From a virus (taxonomy: Duplodnaviria > Heunggongvirae > Uroviricota > Caudoviricetes): a DNA stretch of 64,000 nt. A program made the position numbers and the translations under genes. The stretch lies in IMG/VR virus record IMGVR_UViG_2579779105_000001; one strand, 5' to 3'. Positions within the stretch are counted from its first letter, which is position 1. Each line of letters begins with the position of its first letter. The notes under the pieces were generated by a model. The model searched no databases. It was not told the origin of the DNA and saw only the letters and a program-made list of their open reading frames with translations. Of the stretch, positions 2,952 to 63,920 are shown piece after piece.

Positions 2952-4869
2952 CAATCCTTTACGAATTAATATTCAGTCTACTTTTGCTGATACGATCCCC
3001 GGCTATATGCCAGGTCGCTGGTCTTCAGAAGAATTAAGCGAAGATGACCTGATTTTTGAGGCGGCGACCTTAGAAGATATTGAGCTTGCCTATATGGGCA
3101 ATGAAATTCTGGTTGTGTCTGACGAAGCTATGTTTGAGTCCATAACTACAACCAGAATTCGGTTAGCTCAAACAATGCGAGCTTTCGTCCGTGCGCTGAA
3201 TCGTGGCCTGAATGGTACGAATATTATGGCAGGGACTGATGAAGCCGGGACCGATGAAAATGGACGTAATTGTATTGGTGGTGCGATTATCGGTCGTGTA
3301 CGTCGGGTAGCTAATATCCCTGTTTTGACCGCGCAGATACCGCTTACTGACGGGCAGAGTACAAGCATAATTTTCCACTCTCCAACAGCTGACGGGGCAA
3401 AAATAAAGAGTAACGACGAGCTTGTTGCATTTCAGTTTTTACTTAATAAGCGTAACGTAACTCACGTTGTCGCCCCGATTGGCGGGAGAGATGTTTCTTT
3501 AAGCCAGGTATGCCAGGCGCTATCTAATTTGATTGAGCGTAACAGCGAAAAATTTAAGAAAGCAAAAGAGCGCCAGGACAAAATGAAGGCAGATATTGAG
3601 AGTTATCTCAATGAAGCAGATAAACTGGCAGAAGAACGGTCAATAACAATTGATCAGGTGGACGTTGCGCAACGTGGGCTGACTGAAAAGCGTGCTGCTC
3701 TTACGGAGATGCAAAAAAAACTTGATGCCCAGAAAGCCATCAACGAGGAATTACAAGAAAAACGCGATAAATTGTTGTCTGCTAAAGGTGAAAAAACGAA
3801 GGAGCGAGCGTTTAGTGACCAGCTGCGACATGTAAAACATAATCTTGCCATTGACGGAAAAACAGTGCTGGATAATGGCGCTGAAGTTAATTATGTCACG
3901 TCCGGCAGTGACAATTTCGTTACGATAGTAGCACCTGAAGGTAAATTCAGTATTGATGCCAGTGCTGTCAAAGGAGGCAGTTTGGCAGATGCTGCAACCA
4001 AATTACTTAAAGCCTACCGAGAGCATAACGCAGATAAATATAAAGTTGATGTGTTACCAGGCCAGCAGGAAGACTCCGAACCACCACAGACAGCCCCCGA
4101 GACGAACCCAGTATCACAACCAGAGAGCCAAGATGTAGGTAAATACCACTATGCACTTCAATCTCGCCCGGCTGGTGTTGGTGCTGTGCCGGATGGGAAT
4201 AAAGCCGTGCTTGATCGTCCTGACCAGGCTGATCAGTATTACGGATATGCTCGTCACGGTATCATTACGTATGACCGTAAACTGACAGATGAAGAAGTCA
4301 GCCAGTACGAGTTGCTCTATCTTCCTGATGAAGATGAGCTGAAAGATTTTGCAGGCCAATTGGTTGTGTCCAGCATGTCTAAACATATTGATGGCTATGT
4401 GGACCTGTTTGGCAGTGACCTGAAAACATTCAAGGCGCAAGTGAAAATTCTTTTCCGCAAAGCGTTTCCAAACGTGGCGTATCCACTTGGTGATGGGGAG
4501 AACCTTTTCATTATGGACGTGTATAACGCCCTTCAAAATTATTCAAGCGAAGTAAAAACAGAGCATGTGGTTGAGCCAGAATCACAACCACAACCAGCAC
4601 CAGAACAGGAGCCGGAGCCAGAAGAAGCGGGTGAATCAGCAAGTGAAGCTGATCAGGAGGCAGATAAAGCGCTGGAGTACCTGAAATCCGTGCCGGAGCA
4701 GTTTACATCCCGCGATCTGACGGTCATCAGTACTGAACTTGATCATGTACAGGAAGCAGCAAATGCTCTAATCAGTGCAGGTCGATACGACGAGAACGAA
4801 GCCACTGTGGGTGCAGCAGTTGACTACCTGATCAACATTCTGGCTGAAATTCAGCAGGGAGGTGCTTAA
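2944..4869 (+). CDS. DarA-like virion antirestriction/head-morphogenesis protein
   Basis: 641 aa from ATG 2944 (P1 DarA is about 639 aa, recalled); overlaps upstream stop; acidic C-terminal segments; call is positional, no sequence-level confirmation. Confidence 0.4.
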   Translation: MINNPLRINIQSTFADTIPGYMPGRWSSEELSEDDLIFEAATLEDIELAYMGNEILVVSDEAMFESITTTRIRLAQTMRAFVRALNRGLNGTNIMAGTDEAGTDENGRNCIGGAIIGRVRRVANIPVLTAQIPLTDGQSTSIIFHSPTADGAKIKSNDELVAFQFLLNKRNVTHVVAPIGGRDVSLSQVCQALSNLIERNSEKFKKAKERQDKMKADIESYLNEADKLAEERSITIDQVDVAQRGLTEKRAALTEMQKKLDAQKAINEELQEKRDKLLSAKGEKTKERAFSDQLRHVKHNLAIDGKTVLDNGAEVNYVTSGSDNFVTIVAPEGKFSIDASAVKGGSLADAATKLLKAYREHNADKYKVDVLPGQQEDSEPPQTAPETNPVSQPESQDVGKYHYALQSRPAGVGAVPDGNKAVLDRPDQADQYYGYARHGIITYDRKLTDEEVSQYELLYLPDEDELKDFAGQLVVSSMSKHIDGYVDLFGSDLKTFKAQVKILFRKAFPNVAYPLGDGENLFIMDVYNALQNYSSEVKTEHVVEPESQPQPAPEQEPEPEEAGESASEADQEADKALEYLKSVPEQFTSRDLTVISTELDHVQEAANALISAGRYDENEATVGAAVDYLINILAEIQQGGA

Positions 4870-55694: not shown

Positions 55695-56600
55695 ATGAGA
55701 TCAGTCGCTTTCAAAAATATCTTCATCTATCGTCTTTCACGCGAAGTTAACTGGGATACCGCAGAAGTAAATGCAGCCCTTAGCAAGTTTGTGTTTACCC
55801 CATGCGGTTCTCAGGATATGGCTAAAGCTGGTTGGACCCCAATTCTTGGCGACAACCTCACCCATGAATACCAGGGTTTTCTTCTGATGCAGCATAAACG
55901 AGAGGAAAAAATCCTGCCTTCTCAAGTACTCAAAGAAGAGTTACAGAAAAAAATCCTGAAACTTGAAGAAGAGCAAGACAGAAAGCTGAAGAAGACCGAA
56001 AAAGATTCGCTGAAGGATGAAGTGCTTCACTCTCTTCTTCCTCGCGCTTTCACGAGAAAATCAGTCGCTAAAATCCTGATAGACCGAAGCAATCATCTGG
56101 TTTTTGTCGAGGCCAGCAGTGCTAAAAAAGCAGAGGATCAGCTGGCTTTGTTACGGAAATCGCTTGGCAGCTTGCCCGTTGTCCCCTTCTCTCCGAAAGA
56201 CCCATTAGAACTGACCATCACTGGCTGGATTAAAGATGGCTTCCCGAACGGTTTCCGTGCTGGTGAGGAAGCGACTTTAAAAGCATTGCTTGATGATGGC
56301 GGCGCGGTCCGCTGCAAAAAAGTGGACCTGCTATCCGACGAGATCATGAGTCATATAGAAGCTGGTAAGGTTGCAACCACAGTTGCGGTTAACTGGCAAG
56401 ACCGTGCATTTTTCAGACTGAATGACGATATGAGTATCAAGGCTTTGTCGTTCAGCGACGAATTGTACGACCAAAACGACGATATTGATCGAGAGGATGT
56501 AGCGCAACGATTTGACGCTGACTTTATCCTGTTTACTGCTGAATTATCAGCCATGTTCACTTCGCTAGTGGAGGCCGTTGGTGGTGAAGCAGAACGTTAA
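55695..56600 (+). CDS. hrdC: RdgC-like recombination-associated protein (P1 HrdC-like)
   Basis: N-terminus [10 protein letters not shown] ... [14 protein letters not shown] matches RdgC as recalled. Confidence 0.75.
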
Positions 56601-58872
56601 CCTTAGATATGGTTCTGTTTGCAGTGGAATTGAAGCAGCGAGCATTGCCTGGGAACCGTTGGGTATGCGTCCGGCGTGGTTTGCTGAAATCGAGCCTTTT
56701 CCATCTGCCGTTCTTGCGCACCGCTGGCCCCATGTCGCCAACCTTGGCGATATGACAAAACTTGCCAAAAAAGTCCTGGCTGGGGAAATCGAATCCCCTG
56801 ATGTGCTCGTCGGGGGAACACCTTGTCAGGCATTCAGTATCGCGGGATTACGTGGTGGGCTTGATGATGAGCGTGGCGCGCTAACTTTAAAGTATGTGGA
56901 GCTTGCAAATGCAATTGACGACAAACGGGCTGAGTCATTTCTCAAACCAGCCGTTATCGTCTGGGAAAATGTCCCAGGAGTCTTGTCATCGGCAGATAAC
57001 GCCTTCGGATGTTTCCTTGCCGGATTGGCTGGAGAAGATGCGCCATTCGAACCAGGTGCTCGACCTGAATCACGAAAAAGTAACGCGTTCTGGCGGTGGG
57101 ATGTCAAAACCAGTTGCCATGCTCCAAAGTGGCCGCAGTGTGGTTGTATTTATGGACCGCAGCGAAAAGTGGCCTGGAGAATCCTTGATGCCCAATACTT
57201 CGGAGTGGCACAACGACGCCGACGCGTGTTTGTTGTCGCAAGTGCTCGAACAGACCTCGATCCCGCAACGATACTTTTTGAGTTCGAAGGCGTGCGCCGG
57301 AATATTGCGCCGAGCCGAAAAAAGAAGGAAATCGCTTCCGCCATTATTGCAAATGGCGCTGCAATCAGTGGCGAAAGTCTAAATCCATGCCTACACGCTG
57401 ACATGCCCCCCGGTATGAAATCGACGAAAGCCGTAAACGCTTTCAGGATGGCGGCATTTGGGGAATATATTGACGATGAAACCGCATCGACAGTAAAGGC
57501 AAGAGACTTTAAAGATGCCACTGACCTTGCCGTTTTTAGCAGCACAGGAGCAGGTTTTTGGTCAGAGGGGCATGGTACATTGCGGGCGCGTGAGCAAGAA
57601 AGCCATGAGCATCTTGTTACATTAGCTTTTCCTGAGCATATGAGCGGTACACAACATGCTGCAACTAAGAATACTTCACCATCTCTAATGGCTCAAAATC
57701 CAACAGCCGTTTGCTATGAAGCAAGAAACGCAAAAGTAGCTGTTCGCCGTCTTACCCCTGTCGAATGTGAAAGGCTGCAAGGTTTTCCTGATGGGCATAC
57801 GTTGATCCCTACGGAAAAGCGTAAAACAATTTCCTCAGATGAACTGGCATACCTTCGCAATCACTATCCAGATTTAAGCGAAGAAGAGGCCGCGATGCTC
57901 GCTGCTGACGGGCCGCGTTACAAAGCGATTGGCAACAGCATGGCAGTTCCTGTTATGCAATGGATTGGGTGTTGCATTCTTGCGACTGTGGAAGCTAAAC
58001 AGCCAAAAACAATAAATACCATTACCTACACAAGAATACTCCGGACTCCGGATGAATATGAGCGTCCGATCTTCAAATGGGTAGGAGGTAAATTCTCAGA
58101 GTTACCTACAGTGCTTGAGCATCTACCACACGGCAAGCGGTTAATAGAACCATTCGTTGGTGGCGGTTCCGTATTTACGAATGCAGGATTTCGCCACAAC
58201 CTGCTTAATGATATTAACGGTGACCTGATTAACTTCTATCAGACATTGCAGCGAGAAGGACATTCGCTCGTCACGCTGTCATATAGTTTTTTCCAAAATT
58301 ACAACAACGCTGACGCTTACCTCGAAGTGCGTGAGGCATTTAACAGAGGAAAGTATGACCAGCTACATCATGCTGCCGCCTTTTTGTACCTTAATCGGCA
58401 CTGTTTTAATGGCGTAACGCGGTACAACCAAAATGGCGAGTTCAACGTGGGGTATGGCAAATACAAAGCGCCCTACTTCCCACATGCAGAGATGGAGGCA
58501 TTTTTGGCTGATGACGTACTCAAAAACACGTCCTTTGTATCAGGTGACTTTGCTGGCGTCATCGAGGCGGCTGGTGAAGGCGATGTGATTTTTTGCGATC
58601 CGCCGTATGAACCGCTGCCGGATACAGAAGGGTTTACCAGTTATTCAGGAAATAGCTTCCGTTTCGACGAACAGAAACGGCTGGTATCTCTATTGGTGGA
58701 AGCCCACCAGCGCGGCGCTAAGGTAGTGATTACAAATAGTGGTGCGCCAAACATCCGTGAACTATATGAAGGAAACGGGTTTAAAGTACATCATATGGCA
58801 GCCAGACGGTCGGTTTCCTGCAAGGCGTCAACACGTGTAGTTGCTAACGATATAATTGCAATAATGAAGTAA
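56578..58872 (+). CDS. dmt: bifunctional DNA methyltransferase: N-terminal C5-cytosine MTase + C-terminal Dam-like N6-adenine MTase
   Basis: C5 motifs [26 protein letters not shown]; Dam-like motifs KWVGGK and DPPY; start codon (TTG/GTG at 56578-56584) uncertain. Confidence 0.8.
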
Positions 58873-58920: not shown

Positions 58921-60582
58921 TTAACCTAACTTCGCCCAGGTATCACGCAGCCCAACGGTGCGGTTAAATACCGGTTTTTCCGCCGTAGAATGGCGGCTGT
59001 CGAGGCAGAAATAACCTTCACGCTCAAACTGGAATGCTTTACCAGCTACCGCTTCTTTCAGCGACGGTTCAGCAAAGCCCTGTTTGATCACCAGCGATTC
59101 CGGGTTAATCACCGACAGAAAATCATCCGCAGCACCTGGGTTCGGTACACTGAACAGACGGTCGTACAGGCGAATTTCAACCGGCAGCGCATGGGCCGCG
59201 CTTACCCAGTGGATAACGCCTTTCACTTTACGACCATCTGCCGGATCTTTGCTTAAAGTATCGGCATCGTAGGTACAGAAGATGGTGGTGATATTGCCTT
59301 CGGCATCTTTCTCCACGCGTTCAGCCTTAATGACGTAAGCATTACGCAGACGCACTTCTTTACCCAGCACCAGACGTTTGTACTGCTTGTTAGCTTCTTC
59401 GCGGAAATCGGCGCGGTCGATCCAAATCTCACCGCTAAACGGCACCTGACGGCTACCCATTTCCGGTTTGTTCGGATGGTTCGGCATGGTGACCATTTCG
59501 CCTTCGCCCTGGTAGTTTTCGATAACCAGTTTCACCGGATCGATAACCGCCATTGCGCGCGGCGCATTTTCGTTGAGATCTTCACGGATGCAGGATTCCA
59601 GCGACGCCATCTCAATGGTGTTGTCCTGCTTGGTCACGCCGATGCGTTTGCAGAACTCACGAATAGAAGCCGCAGTGTAACCACGACGACGCAGACCGGA
59701 AATGGTCGGCATACGCGGGTCATCCCAGCCTTCAACGTGCTTGTCGGTCACCAGCAGGTTCAGCTTACGCTTGGACATCACAGTGTATTCCAGATTCAGG
59801 CGCGAGAATTCGTACTGGCGCGGGTGAACAGGAATGGTGATGTTGTCCAGCACCCAGTCGTACAGGCGACGGTTGTCCTGGAACTCAAGCGTACACAGAG
59901 AGTGCGTAATACCTTCCAGCGCATCGCTGATGCAGTGGGTGAAGTCGTACATCGGGTAGATGCACCACTTGTTGCCAGTCTGGTGGTGTTCAGCAAACTT
60001 AATGCGGTACAGCACCGGATCGCGCATCACGATAAACGGCGACGCCATGTCGATTTTCGCACGCAGGCAGGCTTTACCTTCTTCAAAACCACCGGCACGC
60101 ATTTTTTCGAACAGCGCCAGGTTCTCTTCAACGCTGCGATCGCGGTACGGGCTGTTTTTACCCGGCTGCGTCAGGGTGCCGCGGTATTCGCGGATCTGTT
60201 CCGGCGTCAGTTCGTCAACATACGCCAGGCCTTTGTTGATCAGTTCAACAGCATAGGCGTGGAGCTGATCAAAATAATCGGAGGAGTAACGGACGTTACC
60301 AGACCAGTGAAAACCTAACCATTCAACGTCGTTTTTAATCGACTCGACGTACTCGATATCTTCTTTTACCGGGTTAGTGTCGTCGAAACGCAGGTTGCAC
60401 TGGCCTTTATAGTCCTGGGCGATCCCGAAGTTCAGGCAGATAGATTTCGCATGACCAATATGCAGATAGCCATTCGGTTCCGGCGGGAAACGGGTATGTA
60501 CTGTGGTGTGCTTACCACTTGCCAGATCTTCATCGATGATCTGACGAATAAAGTTAGTCGGGCGGGCTTCTGCCTCACTCAT
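58921..60582 (-). CDS. glnS: glutaminyl-tRNA synthetase
   Basis: 553 aa, essentially collinear and near-identical to E. coli GlnS as recalled, including HIGH (HIGH at residues 40-43) and VMSKR. Confidence 0.9.
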
Positions 60583-60850
60583 TGTGGATTCCTCAAAGCG
60601 TAAAAAACGTATAACAGCGTATGATCTTATAAGCCGAATAGGCTGACAACCACTAGTTGATTAGAAATTGCTTTCTATCGTTATTTCAATAATGAGCTTT
60701 TTCATGAAGCCCACTTTTGCGCATAAGTAAATTAATGACAAATGGTACACAATTGGAACCAAAAAGGATGTAAAGGTGCACCAAATTAGTGGTGTATTGG
60801 TGCATCTTTGGTTCAAGATTTTTTAAGTTCTAAAACCACCCTGAAAGACT

Positions 60851-61138
60851 TTATTTTGCTTCCTCAGACTCCGCTAACATGAGGATAGCATGGCGGATCA
60901 TATTCAATTTGCTGCGATTATGCTTTTTACTTAACGCATCAAGTACCTGGTACTCGTATTCATTGAAACCAACACGAATAGATTTAAAATCACGTGGAGC
61001 GTCCTTATCGAGCACTTTGTTGTCTTCTGGTTGCTCACCCGGCACCAAATCAGCCTTACTTGCAAAATCCTCAATTCGGCGTTCAAGATCGGGGTCTTTT
61101 ACTTCGGGGGCTTTTACCGATTTACGAGGTTTAATCAC
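60851..61138 (-). CDS. ParG-like ribbon-helix-helix partition protein
   Basis: 95 aa; C-terminal RHH-like KSIRVGFNEYEYQVLDALSKKH; overlaps the ParA-like gene. Confidence 0.5.
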   Translation of the reverse strand: MIKPRKSVKAPEVKDPDLERRIEDFASKADLVPGEQPEDNKVLDKDAPRDFKSIRVGFNEYEYQVLDALSKKHNRSKLNMIRHAILMLAESEEAK

Positions 61139-61772
61139 TTAATAACTCCTTAACCAACATCTGGATTTCACCTTTAGCTTTCCCGTTGTCCATCTCAACA
61201 ACGCCCTTCCCTTCAGCCATGCAATCGCGGTAAACCTTACGATCACGAATGATGGTTTTCAGCAACTTCAGTTGCGGATATTCAGCCAGGTACTCTTTGG
61301 CCTCATTGGTTTCATTCACAACCGGATTGGATGGGGCCATTGTTAAGACTGCGAACGCCTTAATGCTAGGATTAGGCATCAGGTCCAAAGCCTCTTCAAA
61401 CACTTCAACAAAGTGTGCCAGCGTGTCTAAATCTGGTTGAGATGGTCTGAATGGGACCAACACAATATCTGCAGCGGTTATGCCTGTACGCATCTCTTTG
61501 CTATCGCGCCCGGCTGTATCAACAACTACAAATTCATAACGCTTATCCAGATCGAGAAGTGTTTCTCGAATATTACCAAACTTCTGGACACAATGAATTA
61601 CAGGAGAAACCTCTGCCGTGTTACGGTCAGCGGCCCAGCGGGCAGCTGTTCCTTGCTTGTCTGCATCTAGTAACACTACATCCTTATTTTCGCGGGCAAG
61701 CTCCGCACAGATGTTTACGCTTGTGGTTGATTTTCCACAGCCACCTTTTTGGCTGACTACCAATATAATCAT
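61131..61772 (-). CDS. parA: ParA/ParF-family partition ATPase (type Ib)
   Basis: 213 aa; deviant Walker A KGGCGKST. Confidence 0.8.
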   Translation of the reverse strand: MIILVVSQKGGCGKSTTSVNICAELARENKDVVLLDADKQGTAARWAADRNTAEVSPVIHCVQKFGNIRETLLDLDKRYEFVVVDTAGRDSKEMRTGITAADIVLVPFRPSQPDLDTLAHFVEVFEEALDLMPNPSIKAFAVLTMAPSNPVVNETNEAKEYLAEYPQLKLLKTIIRDRKVYRDCMAEGKGVVEMDNGKAKGEIQMLVKELLSD

Positions 61773-61794
61773 ATCCGTTCCTCGGTGTTATTTT

Positions 61795-62050
61795 GGTATC
61801 AAACTGGTTCCAAACAGAAGCCTTATTGATGCAGTTTTGGCTCTATAGTGGAGTCATTATGCTTTGCAAAAGTATAACACTAATCATTCTAAATTTGCCC
61901 TCTGTTGCATCCTGTTTAACACGAAATCAGCCCTAAATTGGAACCAGATACAAAACTGCACCATAACAGCACCTAACCGGTGCCAGATTAACACCAATTA
62001 GGCACCATTAAGGCATAAAAAAGGCTGCAATTTGCAGCCTTAAACCAGCA
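61795..62050. repeat. centromere-like repeat region (GCACCA / TGGAACCA / TGGTTCCA motifs)
   Basis: Several short direct and inverted repeats upstream of the parA-like gene; similar motifs at 60760-60820. Confidence 0.35.
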
Positions 62051-62059
62051 CATCTTCTG

Positions 62060-62404
62060 TCAATCAGGTAGAGAGTCAGCCAGATTGCGCGCCGACGCGC
62101 TTTTGGCAACAACTTGCTCCTTCACTGGCTCAATGGAGGCAGGGCGCTCCTCAACCGCAGCTGGTAGTTCCAGGAAGGATGCCAGCATTTTTCGGATCAG
62201 CTCCGGATTATTATCTTCGGTCAGCAGGGAAGCCAGTAATCCTGGAAGCCTGCTATCGACTTCTCCCAGCGCAAGCCCTGCCAACAATGCGGTTCTTGCC
62301 ATATCGCTATGTTTTTTTATCTTCTCGCTCGCCGCCTTTTCATTGGCATAAGCCTCTGGGCGAAGATAAATCATCACTTTCTTACGTTCCTGAGACATGG
62401 ACAT
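62060..62404 (-). CDS. parR: ParR/StbB-like partition adaptor
   Basis: 114 aa directly downstream of the actin-like ATPase gene. Confidence 0.5.
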   Translation of the reverse strand: MSMSQERKKVMIYLRPEAYANEKAASEKIKKHSDMARTALLAGLALGEVDSRLPGLLASLLTEDNNPELIRKMLASFLELPAAVEERPASIEPVKEQVVAKSASARNLADSLPD

Positions 62405-62411
62405 TACCTCG

Positions 62412-63368
62412 TTAACCGATTGCTTTCAGGCCATGAACAAGAGCAAGTTGCGGGTCATCCGCCACGAAGAAACGGTCATCACGAATATTAACTTGCTCGC
62501 GAATTGCATCTGCCACCAGCGGTGCGCCACCACCGATCACCATGACATGCGTATATCCTTTAAAGTCGCCAATCACATCAAGAACGCGGGTACGCAGACG
62601 GTCAATGCTTGCGGCAATGGCCTTTTTCACATCACCAATCGCTGATGGGTCATTGATATTGTCGTTCAGATAATCTTCATCGTGGCGGTTAATAATGAGC
62701 TGATCGACATTGTAATTTGACGTTTCGGTATTGGCCCTTGCAAGTGCTTGCCTTACTTCCCTGGTGACCAGTGATACACCAAGATTCGAATCGCCAAAAA
62801 CACGGGAAACTGCCGTCATTTGCCCGGCGACCATTGAAACATCAAGGGTAGTTCCACCCAAATCGACGATAAGAACAGAATGGGCAGGGTTCAGATTGTC
62901 GCACAGGCCAATTCCTGCCGGAATAGACTCCGGTCGTACCGTAACTTTCTTAATCGTGAACACATTGCCTTTATTCAGCGTGACGGGGCGCATAAGACTG
63001 GCTTTCTTGCGCTCGATGTTATCGAGATTGTATTGCGCGTCGTCGTCGTAAAACTCCGCCAGAGGCAGCGTGACCACAATTTCTACTTCCTGCGGCTCAA
63101 TGCCACTTGTCAGCAGGGCATGGTGAACAGCCAGGACGTTAAGCGGGCTGTATTGCCATTCCACGTTATTCGTCGGCAGAACATCTGGCGAGATCAAATC
63201 ATACGAATACTTTTCGTCGTCAATGACATAGTTAAACGGCTTGCCCGCACCAAATGTTGCTGACCATCCGCGCTTAAAGCTGTTAGGGCTGATGTGAGTG
63301 CGAGTTTCCCCGTCGTGCTCCCACAGCATTTTGATATTGGTTGAACCATCATCGATAAAAATGCGCAT
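62412..63368 (-). CDS. parM: ParM/StbA actin-like segregation ATPase (type II)
   Basis: N-terminus MRIFIDDGSTNIK matches ParM/StbA as recalled; start placed at ATG 63368 (GGAG SD), not the track start. Confidence 0.8.
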   Translation of the reverse strand: MRIFIDDGSTNIKMLWEHDGETRTHISPNSFKRGWSATFGAGKPFNYVIDDEKYSYDLISPDVLPTNNVEWQYSPLNVLAVHHALLTSGIEPQEVEIVVTLPLAEFYDDDAQYNLDNIERKKASLMRPVTLNKGNVFTIKKVTVRPESIPAGIGLCDNLNPAHSVLIVDLGGTTLDVSMVAGQMTAVSRVFGDSNLGVSLVTREVRQALARANTETSNYNVDQLIINRHDEDYLNDNINDPSAIGDVKKAIAASIDRLRTRVLDVIGDFKGYTHVMVIGGGAPLVADAIREQVNIRDDRFFVADDPQLALVHGLKAIG

Positions 63369-63393
63369 CTTCTTGCTCCACTTCTGAGACACA

Positions 63394-63550
63394 TTTGAGA
63401 ATCATAATGCAATTTTAAAAGAGAAGCCCCCAAAAATCCACACCAAAAGAGATAAAAAAAGAGTGATTATTGAGTTCATTTTGAGAATACCTTAATCACC
63501 CAATGAATTATGGTCTGACAGTGAGATTTATTTGAGAATGAAGTGAGAAT
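63394..63550. repeat. parC-like iterons (TTGAGAAT x3-4)
   Basis: TTTGAGAAT at 63394, 63479 and 63531, plus GTGAGAAT at 63543, upstream of parM. Confidence 0.4.
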
Positions 63551-63635
63551 ACAGAAATATTCCGAAATTTAACTCTCAGTTTGAATGATGAAATAACAAA
63601 GTGATGACAATAGGAGGATAACCCGGAGGTGAAGA

Positions 63636-63920
63636 ATGAGCGCAATAGCCACCAGCGACACCCTTTGTTCTGGTCACGGAGGATTTCCGCCGCGACTGGT
63701 AGCTGAAACTGTTCCCTGGTTCACCGTTAACGGTAAGCCAATTGTTGTAGATGGTGCCATGTTTCCCAGTCACACTGACGGTAACAGTGCACATCCAGGG
63801 GCAGCTGTATCGACGCGAGTATGGTTTTCGATAGGTGGAAAGGGAGTTGTCTGTGTAGGCGATCCGCTTTCTTGTGGTTCTGTTATCGCCAACGGCGAGG
63901 ATATTTTTCAGGTTGCATAA
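63636..63920 (+). CDS. PAAR-like spike-tip protein
   Basis: 94 aa, Gly/Pro-rich with conserved Cys/His pattern reminiscent of PAAR-like domains; GGAGG SD. Confidence 0.4.
   Translation: MSAIATSDTLCSGHGGFPPRLVAETVPWFTVNGKPIVVDGAMFPSHTDGNSAHPGAAVSTRVWFSIGGKGVVCVGDPLSCGSVIANGEDIFQVA

Follow-up and report, generated by a model that had tools for sequence, protein, structure and literature searches.

We identified two complete plasmid-segregation cassettes side by side, in tandem order, on the minus strand between positions 60583 and 63635 of the 64,000-nt stretch of DNA analysed here (the window). It is highly probable that these cassettes, independently transcribed and the sole par loci of the element, keep a low-copy prophage plasmid stably inherited, an explanation that draws on homology, fold, repeat statistics and conservation, purifying selection and the autonomy of the cassettes on other plasmids. 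The interval is the exact gap between the start of glnS (60582) and the start of a PAAR gene (63636), and its four open reading frames all lie on the minus strand. They comprise parM and parR (type II), followed by a terminator and then by the genes for a small ParA and a 95-aa ribbon-helix-helix (RHH) protein (type Ib). The original prediction of a type II and a type Ib cassette, in tandem and each with repeat arrays, agrees with these data: the typing is borne out by homology, fold and gene order, the tandem order by the four minus-strand reading frames, and the arrays by repeats that are enriched over shuffled sequences, 11-bp phased and conserved in diverged relatives. The arrangement is real, but ordinary and previously annotated. 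In the direction of transcription, the features are as follows:

63369..63635, minus strand: parC-like region 5′ of parM, three clusters of (A)TTCTCA(A) iterons in 11-bp phase
63544-48, 63533-37 and 63522-26, minus strand: TCTCA-type cores of cluster one in the parC-like region
63482-86, 63471-75 and 63448-52, minus strand: TCTCA-type cores of cluster two in the parC-like region
about 63412-63440, minus strand: putative parM promoter, TGGATT-N17-TAAAAT, between the last two iteron clusters
63396-400 and 63385-89, minus strand: TCTCA-type cores of cluster three in the parC-like region
62412..63368, minus strand: parM (318 aa), actin-like segregation ATPase by Pfam and R1 ParM homology
62060..62404, minus strand: parR/stbB (112-114 aa), ParR-family centromere-binding adaptor by Pfam, PDB, BLASTP and PHROG
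62021..62041, minus strand: intrinsic terminator-like hairpin and T run directly 3′ of parR, dividing the two operons
61941..62007, minus strand: distal array 5′ of parA, six TGGTGC-like hexamers at ~11-bp spacing
61783..61810, minus strand: possible proximal array beside the ribosome-binding site of parA, three units 11 bp apart (GAACCA, ATACCA, ACACCG)
61131..61772, minus strand: parA (213 aa), small deviant-Walker-A ATPase (KGGCGKST) with no N-terminal HTH domain
60851..61138, minus strand: gene for the 95-aa candidate centromere-binding protein (ParG/ParB-Ib analogue), GTG start, 8-nt overlap with parA
60743..60814, minus strand: array 3′ of the 95-aa gene, six units, putative second centromere site

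The replicon had been taken as P1. With 100% identity to E. coli plasmid pKFS-D08_2 and 96.9% nucleotide identity to phage D6, it is a D6-like (P1-g2) phage-plasmid. No P1-type ParAB is present on it, and no further par locus is found among the annotations of the 92-kb replicon. The replication genes annotated are a single plasmid initiator, RepB, ~10.5 kb distant from the par locus, and the lytic RepL. Phage tail and head genes surround the two cassettes, and the element also carries two toxin-antitoxin systems and a Cre-like recombinase. The locus corresponds to orf58-orf61 of D6 (GenBank MF356679), with 96.9% nucleotide identity and no difference of substance; the D6 record labels the products StbA-type, StbB-type and ‘possible ParA partitioning function’. 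D6 has further been listed with ‘ParA-Ib-type ATPase; RHH protein’ (PMC8026635), and pYU39_89 has been described with cop, parA, stbB and parM (PMC6799933). The genes are thus annotated in D6 already; the present analysis sets out the centromere-like arrays and the two-system reading explicitly.

The parM-parR cassette is, by homology, a type II (ParM/ParR) partition system. The parM product matches Pfam StbA_N (1.8e-69) and ParM_N (3.5e-55) and aligns over its full length with R1 ParM in the PDB (E 1e-111, 54% identity), and the catalytic Asp of R1 ParM (D170) is kept as D169. ParR matches Pfam PF10784 Plasmid_stab_B (3.5e-11), the pB171 ParR structure 2jd3 (E 1e-6) and PHROG 8671 ‘partition protein’, and its gene starts 8-14 nt past the parM stop. 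The parC-like region is common to parM and the divergent PAAR gene. It contains exact copies of TTGAGAAT (minus strand ATTCTCAA) at 63395-63402, 63481-63488 and 63532-63539 and the variant repeat GTGAGAAT at 63543-63550. TTCTCA occurs four times in these 267 bp, compared to 0.84 times in dinucleotide shuffles (7 of 1000 shuffles reach 4), and the TCTCA cores form four 11-bp-phased pairs where 0.29 are expected. Within the 64-kb window, exact TCTCA pairs at 11-bp spacing occur three times, in each case upstream of parM. The CTCA cores and the putative −35/−10 elements are invariant in four variants with diverging flanks; the putative parM promoter itself was called by hand from these conserved blocks, and a consensus scan did not call TGGATT-N17-TAAAAT. 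The other variants do not conserve the single TGGTGT of the parM promoter region.

Directly downstream of parR, the hairpin at 62021..62041 (terminator scan: stem of 9 bp with 5 GC pairs, then TTTTAT) is invariant across the four variants. In a consensus promoter scan, the site count did not exceed that of shuffled sequences and no site was convincing for either operon; the putative promoters of both operons are weak or hand-called. An Rfam search yielded nothing credible.

Homology and predicted fold support the assignment of parA and the 95-aa gene as a type Ib (small ParA plus RHH protein) system. ParA carries the Walker-A motif KGGCGKST at residues 9-16, matches Pfam CbiA/AAA_31/MipZ and reaches 7e-48 against NCBIfam ParA_partition (162.8 bits, under the equivalog cutoff of 180); its alignment to TP228 ParF (PDB 4dzz, E 1.5e-18) begins at residue 3, and that to pB171-type ParA likewise starts within residues 1-3. 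The 95-aa gene is translationally coupled to parA. An AF2 model of its product built from a 61-sequence alignment (pLDDT 83.5; 87-96 at residues 41-95) predicts a single helix (residues 16-29) within a flexible N-terminal part, followed at the C-terminus by a ribbon-helix-helix (~51-94) of beta-alpha-alpha topology; a model from nine near-identical sequences reached a pLDDT of just 57. Of the 50 Foldseek PDB matches listed for the model, nearly all belong to RHH proteins, among them CopG (TMt 0.8) and ParG 1p94, at E-values that are individually not significant. RHH Pfam families match 23, 15 and 12 of the 61 relatives, and the protein itself matches a PHROG Arc-like repressor at 1.8e-4. Searches of the PDB with the protein alone and with the 61-sequence profile gave no significant match, the best relevant one being CopG (E 0.2), nor is there a significant sequence match to ParG. 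A word-indexed protein search retrieved close relatives only, an exhaustive profile search 124 representative proteins; on plasmids, the 95-aa gene always adjoins a ParA gene. Individually insignificant, these matches are together consistent with an RHH centromere-binding candidate.

GCACCA/TGGTGC hexamers flank the parA operon on both sides in 11-bp phase. Counting this degenerate motif with at most one mismatch, we found (i) nine hexamers in the spacer between parR and parA, compared to a shuffle mean of 3.4 (5 of 1000 shuffles reach 9) and (ii) seven downstream of the 95-aa gene, compared to a mean of 2.0 (2 of 1000 reach 7). The units of the distal array are TGGTGC, TGGTGT, TGGCAC, AGGTGC, TGGTGC and TGGTTC; this array is a candidate parC1-like site at which the RHH protein would find its centromere or operator. 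The proximal array consists of weaker matches read by eye, with one of three units passing the one-mismatch rule. The downstream array, with units GAACCA, GCACCA, ACACCA, TGGTGCACC (palindromic), TGGTTCCA and GTACCA, is a putative second centromere site (parC2-like). Two coding stretches of the window with similar hexamer density were rejected as extra sites because they show no 11-bp phasing. The TGGTGC motif recurs, rearranged, in diverged D6-like variants (three D6-like lineages): the S. dysenteriae and W444 variants keep the distal-array motif in 11-bp phase with a different orientation pattern, and same-motif downstream arrays are present in both and in a Serratia cassette. This Serratia plasmid cassette, whose binding protein is about 50% identical, carries the motif on both sides and has an equivalent proximal layout, in which a clear TTGACA-N17-TATATT promoter overlaps the repeats.

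We infer DNA binding, autoregulation and plasmid stabilisation for both cassettes. In the proposed mechanism, ParR dimers would bind cooperatively to the 11-bp-phased TTCTCA iterons around the putative parM promoter, where they would repress the parM operon and assemble the complex by which ParM filaments are capped; sister plasmids would then be pushed apart as ParM polymerises, driven by ATP. The 95-aa RHH protein would bind the TGGTGC/GCACCA arrays flanking the parA operon, with autoregulation at the upstream site, and its flexible N-terminal part would stimulate the ATPase activity of nucleoid-bound ParA, leading to even plasmid spacing over the nucleoid.

pB171 is the textbook case of a dual type II plus type Ib par locus. 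Its double locus comprises par1 (parM/parR, type II) and par2 (parA/parB, type Ib, with parC1 and parC2), and as in the present replicon the two cassettes are adjacent. We compared it via a stand-in, E. coli 55989p, whose ParR locus is identical to that of pB171 (AB024946): ParA (over its full length) and ParM are each 43% identical and ParR 32% (BLASTP, E 2e-11), whereas the 95-aa protein has no significant BLASTP match to the 91-aa ParB (E 0.14) that would mark it as an orthologue. Type Ib repeats lie 5′ of parA and 3′ of the binding-protein gene in both systems, arrays flanking the operon being the parC1/parC2 layout of par2 (PMC4270457), but the repeats differ (TGGTGC-type here, ATCACA/TATGAA-type in the pB171-type locus). 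Divergent operons that share a control and centromere region with cross-talk, a pB171 trait, are not found here: in pB171, parA and parM diverge from a shared parC1 control region, whereas here one operon follows the other on the same strand, with an intervening terminator. The host replicon also differs, being a phage-plasmid here. The expectation that dual partition modules are unusual is not supported, given pB171 itself and the 971 PLSDB accessions in which a 2026 survey found a type I RHH-ParB system together with one of type II; among plasmids whose par system can be recognised, the survey puts those with more than one at about 19% (PMC13245405).

Comparison with the single systems places each cassette further. 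The type II cassette resembles R1/NR1 ParMRC (StbA/StbB) in its ParM (54% identical, catalytic Asp kept), in a ParR of the StbB/ParR Pfam family and in 11-bp iterons 5′ of parM around the putative promoter. In R1, the 11-bp iterons of parC are arranged as two sets of five; the present region differs in iteron sequence and number, with about 8-9 units in three clusters, and ParR is far more diverged than ParM. The type Ib cassette resembles TP228 ParFGH in its small ParA lacking an HTH domain, in short repeated boxes 5′ of the operon and in a small partner which, like ParG, combines a flexible N-terminal region with an RHH domain at the C-terminus. Unlike in ParFGH, ParA is nearer to pB171 ParA than to ParF, ParG is matched at the level of fold but not of sequence, and the hexamers are spaced at 11 bp and present also 3′ of the operon.

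All four genes are under strong purifying selection. Where dS is measurable, dN/dS is 0.016-0.088 in lineages with dS up to about 1.2 (parM 0.016-0.024, parR 0.065-0.088, parA about 0.03; two of the four comparisons of the 95-aa gene have saturated synonymous sites). The full pair of cassettes occurs in about 120 D6-like plasmid records. In one record, CP042632.1, the 95-aa gene is apparently broken; we rejected it as a natural knock-out, since it looks like an error-rich assembly. Single cassettes are found next to replication genes on pACICU1, a Serratia IncI1-like plasmid, Arsenophonus paPb2 and Proteus pSNYG35. A recombination breakpoint lies between the two cassettes: the W444 variant has parMR in common with the window while its parA and CBP genes are diverged, which shows recombination at the level of the cassette.

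Two complete partition systems could also mean that one cassette alone partitions and that the other is redundant, used conditionally (in another host or at another temperature) or decaying. Redundancy, suggested by the original prediction, is plausible in principle, and there are precedents: deletion of stbAB is silent in the native Shigella pINV plasmid, where one of two par systems has no detectable effect, yet the system works on a test vector (PMC6519299), and of the two ParABS systems of SCP1 only one is important in the laboratory (PMC13245405). The two toxin-antitoxin systems and the Cre-like recombinase could, in addition, mask a defect. Because of the pINV precedent, conservation is no proof that both cassettes matter. 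Decay of one cassette is nevertheless unlikely because the four genes are intact and constrained over the range of divergence given above, both repeat sets are conserved and the pair is retained in about 120 records; conditional use of one cassette is conceivable. Overall, we regard a single working cassette as a doubtful reading, though one to be reckoned with. That the pair is simply redundant could also be set against specialisation of the cassettes within the phage-plasmid, which may, for example, assign each to different hosts or growth conditions; this we consider rather improbable.

Two further readings question the origin and the function of the pair. A cointegrate history, also raised by the original prediction, would make the pairing a scar of fusion between two replicons that each brought its own partition system, in line with the different nearest relatives of the cassettes outside the D6 group (Proteus for parMR; Arsenophonus and Serratia for parA) and with a slight difference in G+C content (parM/parR 0.49-0.52, parA/CBP 0.43-0.46). 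However, RepB is the sole plasmid initiator annotated beside the lytic RepL on the 92-kb element, no second replicon adjoins either cassette, both sit among phage tail and head genes, and W444 shows exchange of one cassette without the other; independent capture of small modules accounts for the data without replicon fusion. A cointegrate is thus very unlikely, and modular acquisition is the better reading because of the single plasmid replicon, the occurrence of cassettes alone elsewhere and the breakpoint between them. Lower still do we rate the probability that the ParA/RHH pair is not a partition system, but a regulatory or positioning module (for example, a CopG-like regulator of copy number or transcription accompanied by an orphan ParA-like ATPase) or part of a defence system. 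RHH proteins frequently act simply as repressors, a gene of the cluster is labelled ‘cop’ in one paper (PMC6799933), and ParA has weak PADLOC matches (1e-4). These matches are limited to the Walker A, or P-loop, region, and we rejected the defence reading because they are only P-loop-level. Against a purely regulatory role stand the 43% full-length identity of ParA to the experimentally characterised pB171 par2 ParA type, the translational coupling of the gene pair and its position next to replication genes on many plasmids, and the multiple phased repeats flanking the operon, which are centromere-like rather than those of a simple operator.

With both cassettes partitioning, the locus would explain the stable inheritance, without the P1 ParAB system, of D6-like phage-plasmids, a group common in E. 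coli, Salmonella and Shigella; its importance beyond annotation is small. On the rather improbable reading of specialised cassettes, the pair could let D6-like elements share a cell with P1-type (type Ia) and F/R1-type plasmids by evading partition incompatibility, and escape from incompatibility might then drive the swapping of ParA/RHH alleles seen in W444; the array 3′ of the 95-aa gene may, on this reading, have an effect on neighbouring glnS as well. The candidate centromere sites could serve for incompatibility typing or curing of D6-like elements, and the mosaicism at the cassette level illustrates, on a small scale, how phage-plasmids exchange plasmid functions as modules.

The interval 60583–63635 is the exact gap between the start of glnS and the start of the PAAR-domain gene, and it contains four genes, all on the minus strand:

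58921–60582, minus strand, glnS
60851–61138, minus strand, 95-aa gene, GTG start, 8-nt overlap with parA
61131–61772, minus strand, small parA, 213 aa
62021–62041, strong hairpin and T run, 3′ of parR
62060–62404, minus strand, parR/stbB
62412–63368, minus strand, parM, ATG start at 63368 taken from the R1 ParM alignment
63636–63920, plus strand, PAAR-domain gene

An ORF finder returned a longer, GTG-initiated parM ORF; the R1 ParM alignment begins at ATG 63368 instead. The three non-coding stretches between the genes have a G+C content of 0.34–0.40, compared to 0.48 window-wide. The original prediction of two tandem partition cassettes with repeat arrays is confirmed as an observation, since the four genes are present and the arrays are both enriched over shuffled sequence and phased at 11 bp.

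The replicon had been taken as P1. The segment matches E. coli plasmid pKFS-D08_2 (CP125036.1) at 100% identity and phage D6 at 96.9%, and ~120 non-mobilizable plasmids from E. coli, Salmonella, and Shigella, each roughly 90 kb in size, carry it; because of these matches, we assign the window to a D6-like (P1-g2) phage-plasmid instead. The complete 92-kb replicon carries a single plasmid initiator, RepB, ~10.5 kb distant, plus lytic RepL, two toxin–antitoxin pairs, and a Cre-like recombinase, and its annotation lists no further partition locus. Annotation of the locus already exists for phage D6, and loci of this kind are well known: the D6 GenBank record names one hypothetical protein, StbA-type and StbB-type plasmid stability proteins, and a ‘possible ParA partitioning function’; the D6 entry in PMC8026635 reads ‘ParA-Ib-type ATPase; RHH domain-containing protein’; and for a D6-like Salmonella plasmid, cop, parA, stbB, and parM are named as partition functions (PMC6799933). 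We add a description of the candidate centromeres at the level of single sites, the two-sided array layout resembling pB171 par2, and data on selection and mosaicism.

In the type II cassette, ParM matches Pfam families StbA_N and ParM_N, aligns end to end with R1 ParM structures (E 1e-111, 54% identity), and keeps the equivalent of D170, an aspartate essential in R1 ParM (as cited in PMC6519299). For ParR, the matches are PF10784 and 2jd3, the structure of pB171 ParR. On the gene strand, the motif 5′ of parM is (A)TTCTCA(A); the previously proposed TTGAGAAT is its reverse complement. Four exact TTCTCA copies occur in 267 bp, compared to 0.84 in dinucleotide shuffles (7 of 1000 reach four), and the D6-like variants of S. 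dysenteriae and E. coli W444 have five each (reached by 0–1 of 1000). TCTCA-type cores spaced 11 bp apart form three clusters (four phased pairs, 0.29 expected), and the three exact TCTCA pairs 11 bp apart in the entire 64-kb window all lie 5′ of parM. Across four aligned variants, the CTCA cores are invariant and the intervening sequence is divergent. A TGGATT-N17-TAAAAT block between the second and third iteron clusters is likewise invariant and is a putative parM promoter; a consensus promoter scan did not call it.

The PAAR-domain gene, a homologue of P1 upfC, is divergent from parM. Because a plus-strand promoter-like site (63532–63561) overlaps the first iteron cluster, predicted ParR binding there might also influence this phage gene.

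The ParA of the type Ib cassette has a deviant Walker A motif (KGGCGKST), is devoid of an N-terminal extension, and aligns over its full length with TP228 ParF (E 1.5e-18). Direct sequence searches with the 95-aa protein gave no Pfam and no PDB match. An exhaustive profile search yielded 124 representative relatives. Of 61 aligned relatives, 23 match NikA-like, 15 RHH_1, and 12 DUF6290, each a ribbon-helix-helix (RHH) family. In an AF2 model from this 61-relative alignment (pLDDT 83.5 overall, 87–96 across residues 41–95), a short strand leads into two helices; the N-terminal part before the strand contains one helix and is modelled with less confidence. Of the 50 Foldseek matches listed from the PDB, nearly all are RHH proteins (CopA, CopG, ParG, Arc, ParD, TacA, PutA, NikA, AmrZ), where E-values for single RHH matches are not significant, the domain being so small; PHROGs adds an Arc-like match (1.8e-4). 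Taken together, these four lines are consistent with, rather than proof of, an RHH fold. Arg5 in the N-terminal part is nearly invariant.

Counting TGGTGC/GCACCA-like hexamers with ≤1 mismatch, we find nine in the parR–parA spacer (shuffle mean 3.4; 5 of 1000 reach nine) and seven within 268 bp 3′ of the 95-aa gene (mean 2.0; 2 of 1000 reach seven), phased at 11 bp. Two diverged D6-like lineages keep motif and phase on both sides of the parA operon, with differing orientation patterns. A related cassette on a Serratia conjugative plasmid (S. ureilytica pJBIWA004_1, 3800–4860), whose binding protein is ~50% identical, has NNACCA units at 11-bp spacing both 5′ of parA and 3′ of the small gene, and a near-consensus promoter, TTGACA-N17-TATATT, overlaps with its 5′ array. 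The downstream array contains a hairpin terminator, and a large ParB/RepB/Spo0J-family gene lies nearby.

Directly 3′ of the type Ib cassette and on the same strand, glnS encodes a full-length glutaminyl-tRNA synthetase (553 aa, all three Pfam domains) and may be driven by a promoter-like site at 60621–60649. The gene is present in the window, D6, and E. fergusonii pEF-4; the S. dysenteriae and W444 variants lack it, and in its place a strong terminator follows their downstream repeat array.

The ParMRC, pB171 par2, and TP228 ParFGH families provide established knowledge for a mechanism. Given the homology to ParMRC of R1 and pB171, ParR would coat the TTCTCA iterons and repress the parM operon, and would also link the plasmid to ParM filaments as they grow. 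As in pB171 par2 and TP228 ParFGH, the RHH protein would bind the hexamer arrays and, through its flexible N-terminal part containing Arg5, would stimulate nucleoid-bound ParA, resulting in even plasmid spacing.

Sequence comparison indicates that both cassettes are maintained: all four genes are intact across the D6, S. dysenteriae, W444, and E. fergusonii variants compared, with dN/dS of 0.016–0.088 at dS up to ~1.2. For the 95-aa gene, two of these comparisons reach saturation at synonymous sites. ParA and the small protein occur beside replication genes without parM/parR in Acinetobacter pACICU1, a Serratia plasmid, and Arsenophonus paPb2, and parM and parR alone adjoin replication genes in Proteus pSNYG35. 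Such solitary occurrence is the behaviour of self-contained partition modules. Between the W444 plasmid (NZ_CP122510.1, 2281–4785) and window positions 60851–63368, parM/parR are near-identical (dS 0.075 and 0.135), whereas saturation is reached in parA and the 95-aa gene (dS >1.2; small protein 78% identical in amino acids). This pattern implies a recombination breakpoint between the two cassettes and hence independent recombination of the modules. In E. coli pNCYU-25-82-5 (CP042632.1, 4056–7243), parA, the 95-aa gene, and glnS are unannotated and the tblastn match of the small protein falls into two pieces, probably an assembly error and not a natural knock-out, since no more than 57 features are annotated in that record.

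Among known systems, the double par locus of pB171 comes closest. Both combine the same two system types with two-sided type Ib arrays, the parC1/parC2 layout of par2 (PMC4270457) flanking the operon with arrays as in the window, and the ATPases are 43% identical, the ParA figure being for the pB171-type double par locus on plasmid 55989p. However, the window operons are in tandem and separated by a terminator, whereas those of pB171 are divergent and share parC1; the binding protein has no detectable similarity to pB171-type ParB, and the repeat sequence of the pB171-type locus differs from the window's hexamers. The earlier interpretation is partly supported. Dual modules, regarded there as unusual, are not so: 4144 PLSDB plasmids are reported to have multiple partition systems, 971 of them pairing type I RHH with type II (PMC13245405), and on Shigella pINV two systems are present, both functional (PMC6519299). 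The suggested cointegrate history finds no support, given the single plasmid replicon, and the evidence favours cassette-level exchange.

Beyond glnS, a single 764-aa ORF with a TTG start (56578–58872, plus strand) combines two methylase-like parts, cytosine-C5 at the N-terminus and Dam-like adenine at the C-terminus, and resembles P1 Dmt; this region is annotated as two separate CDS in the D6 record and only as a short hypothetical protein in the PLSDB table for the identical plasmid.
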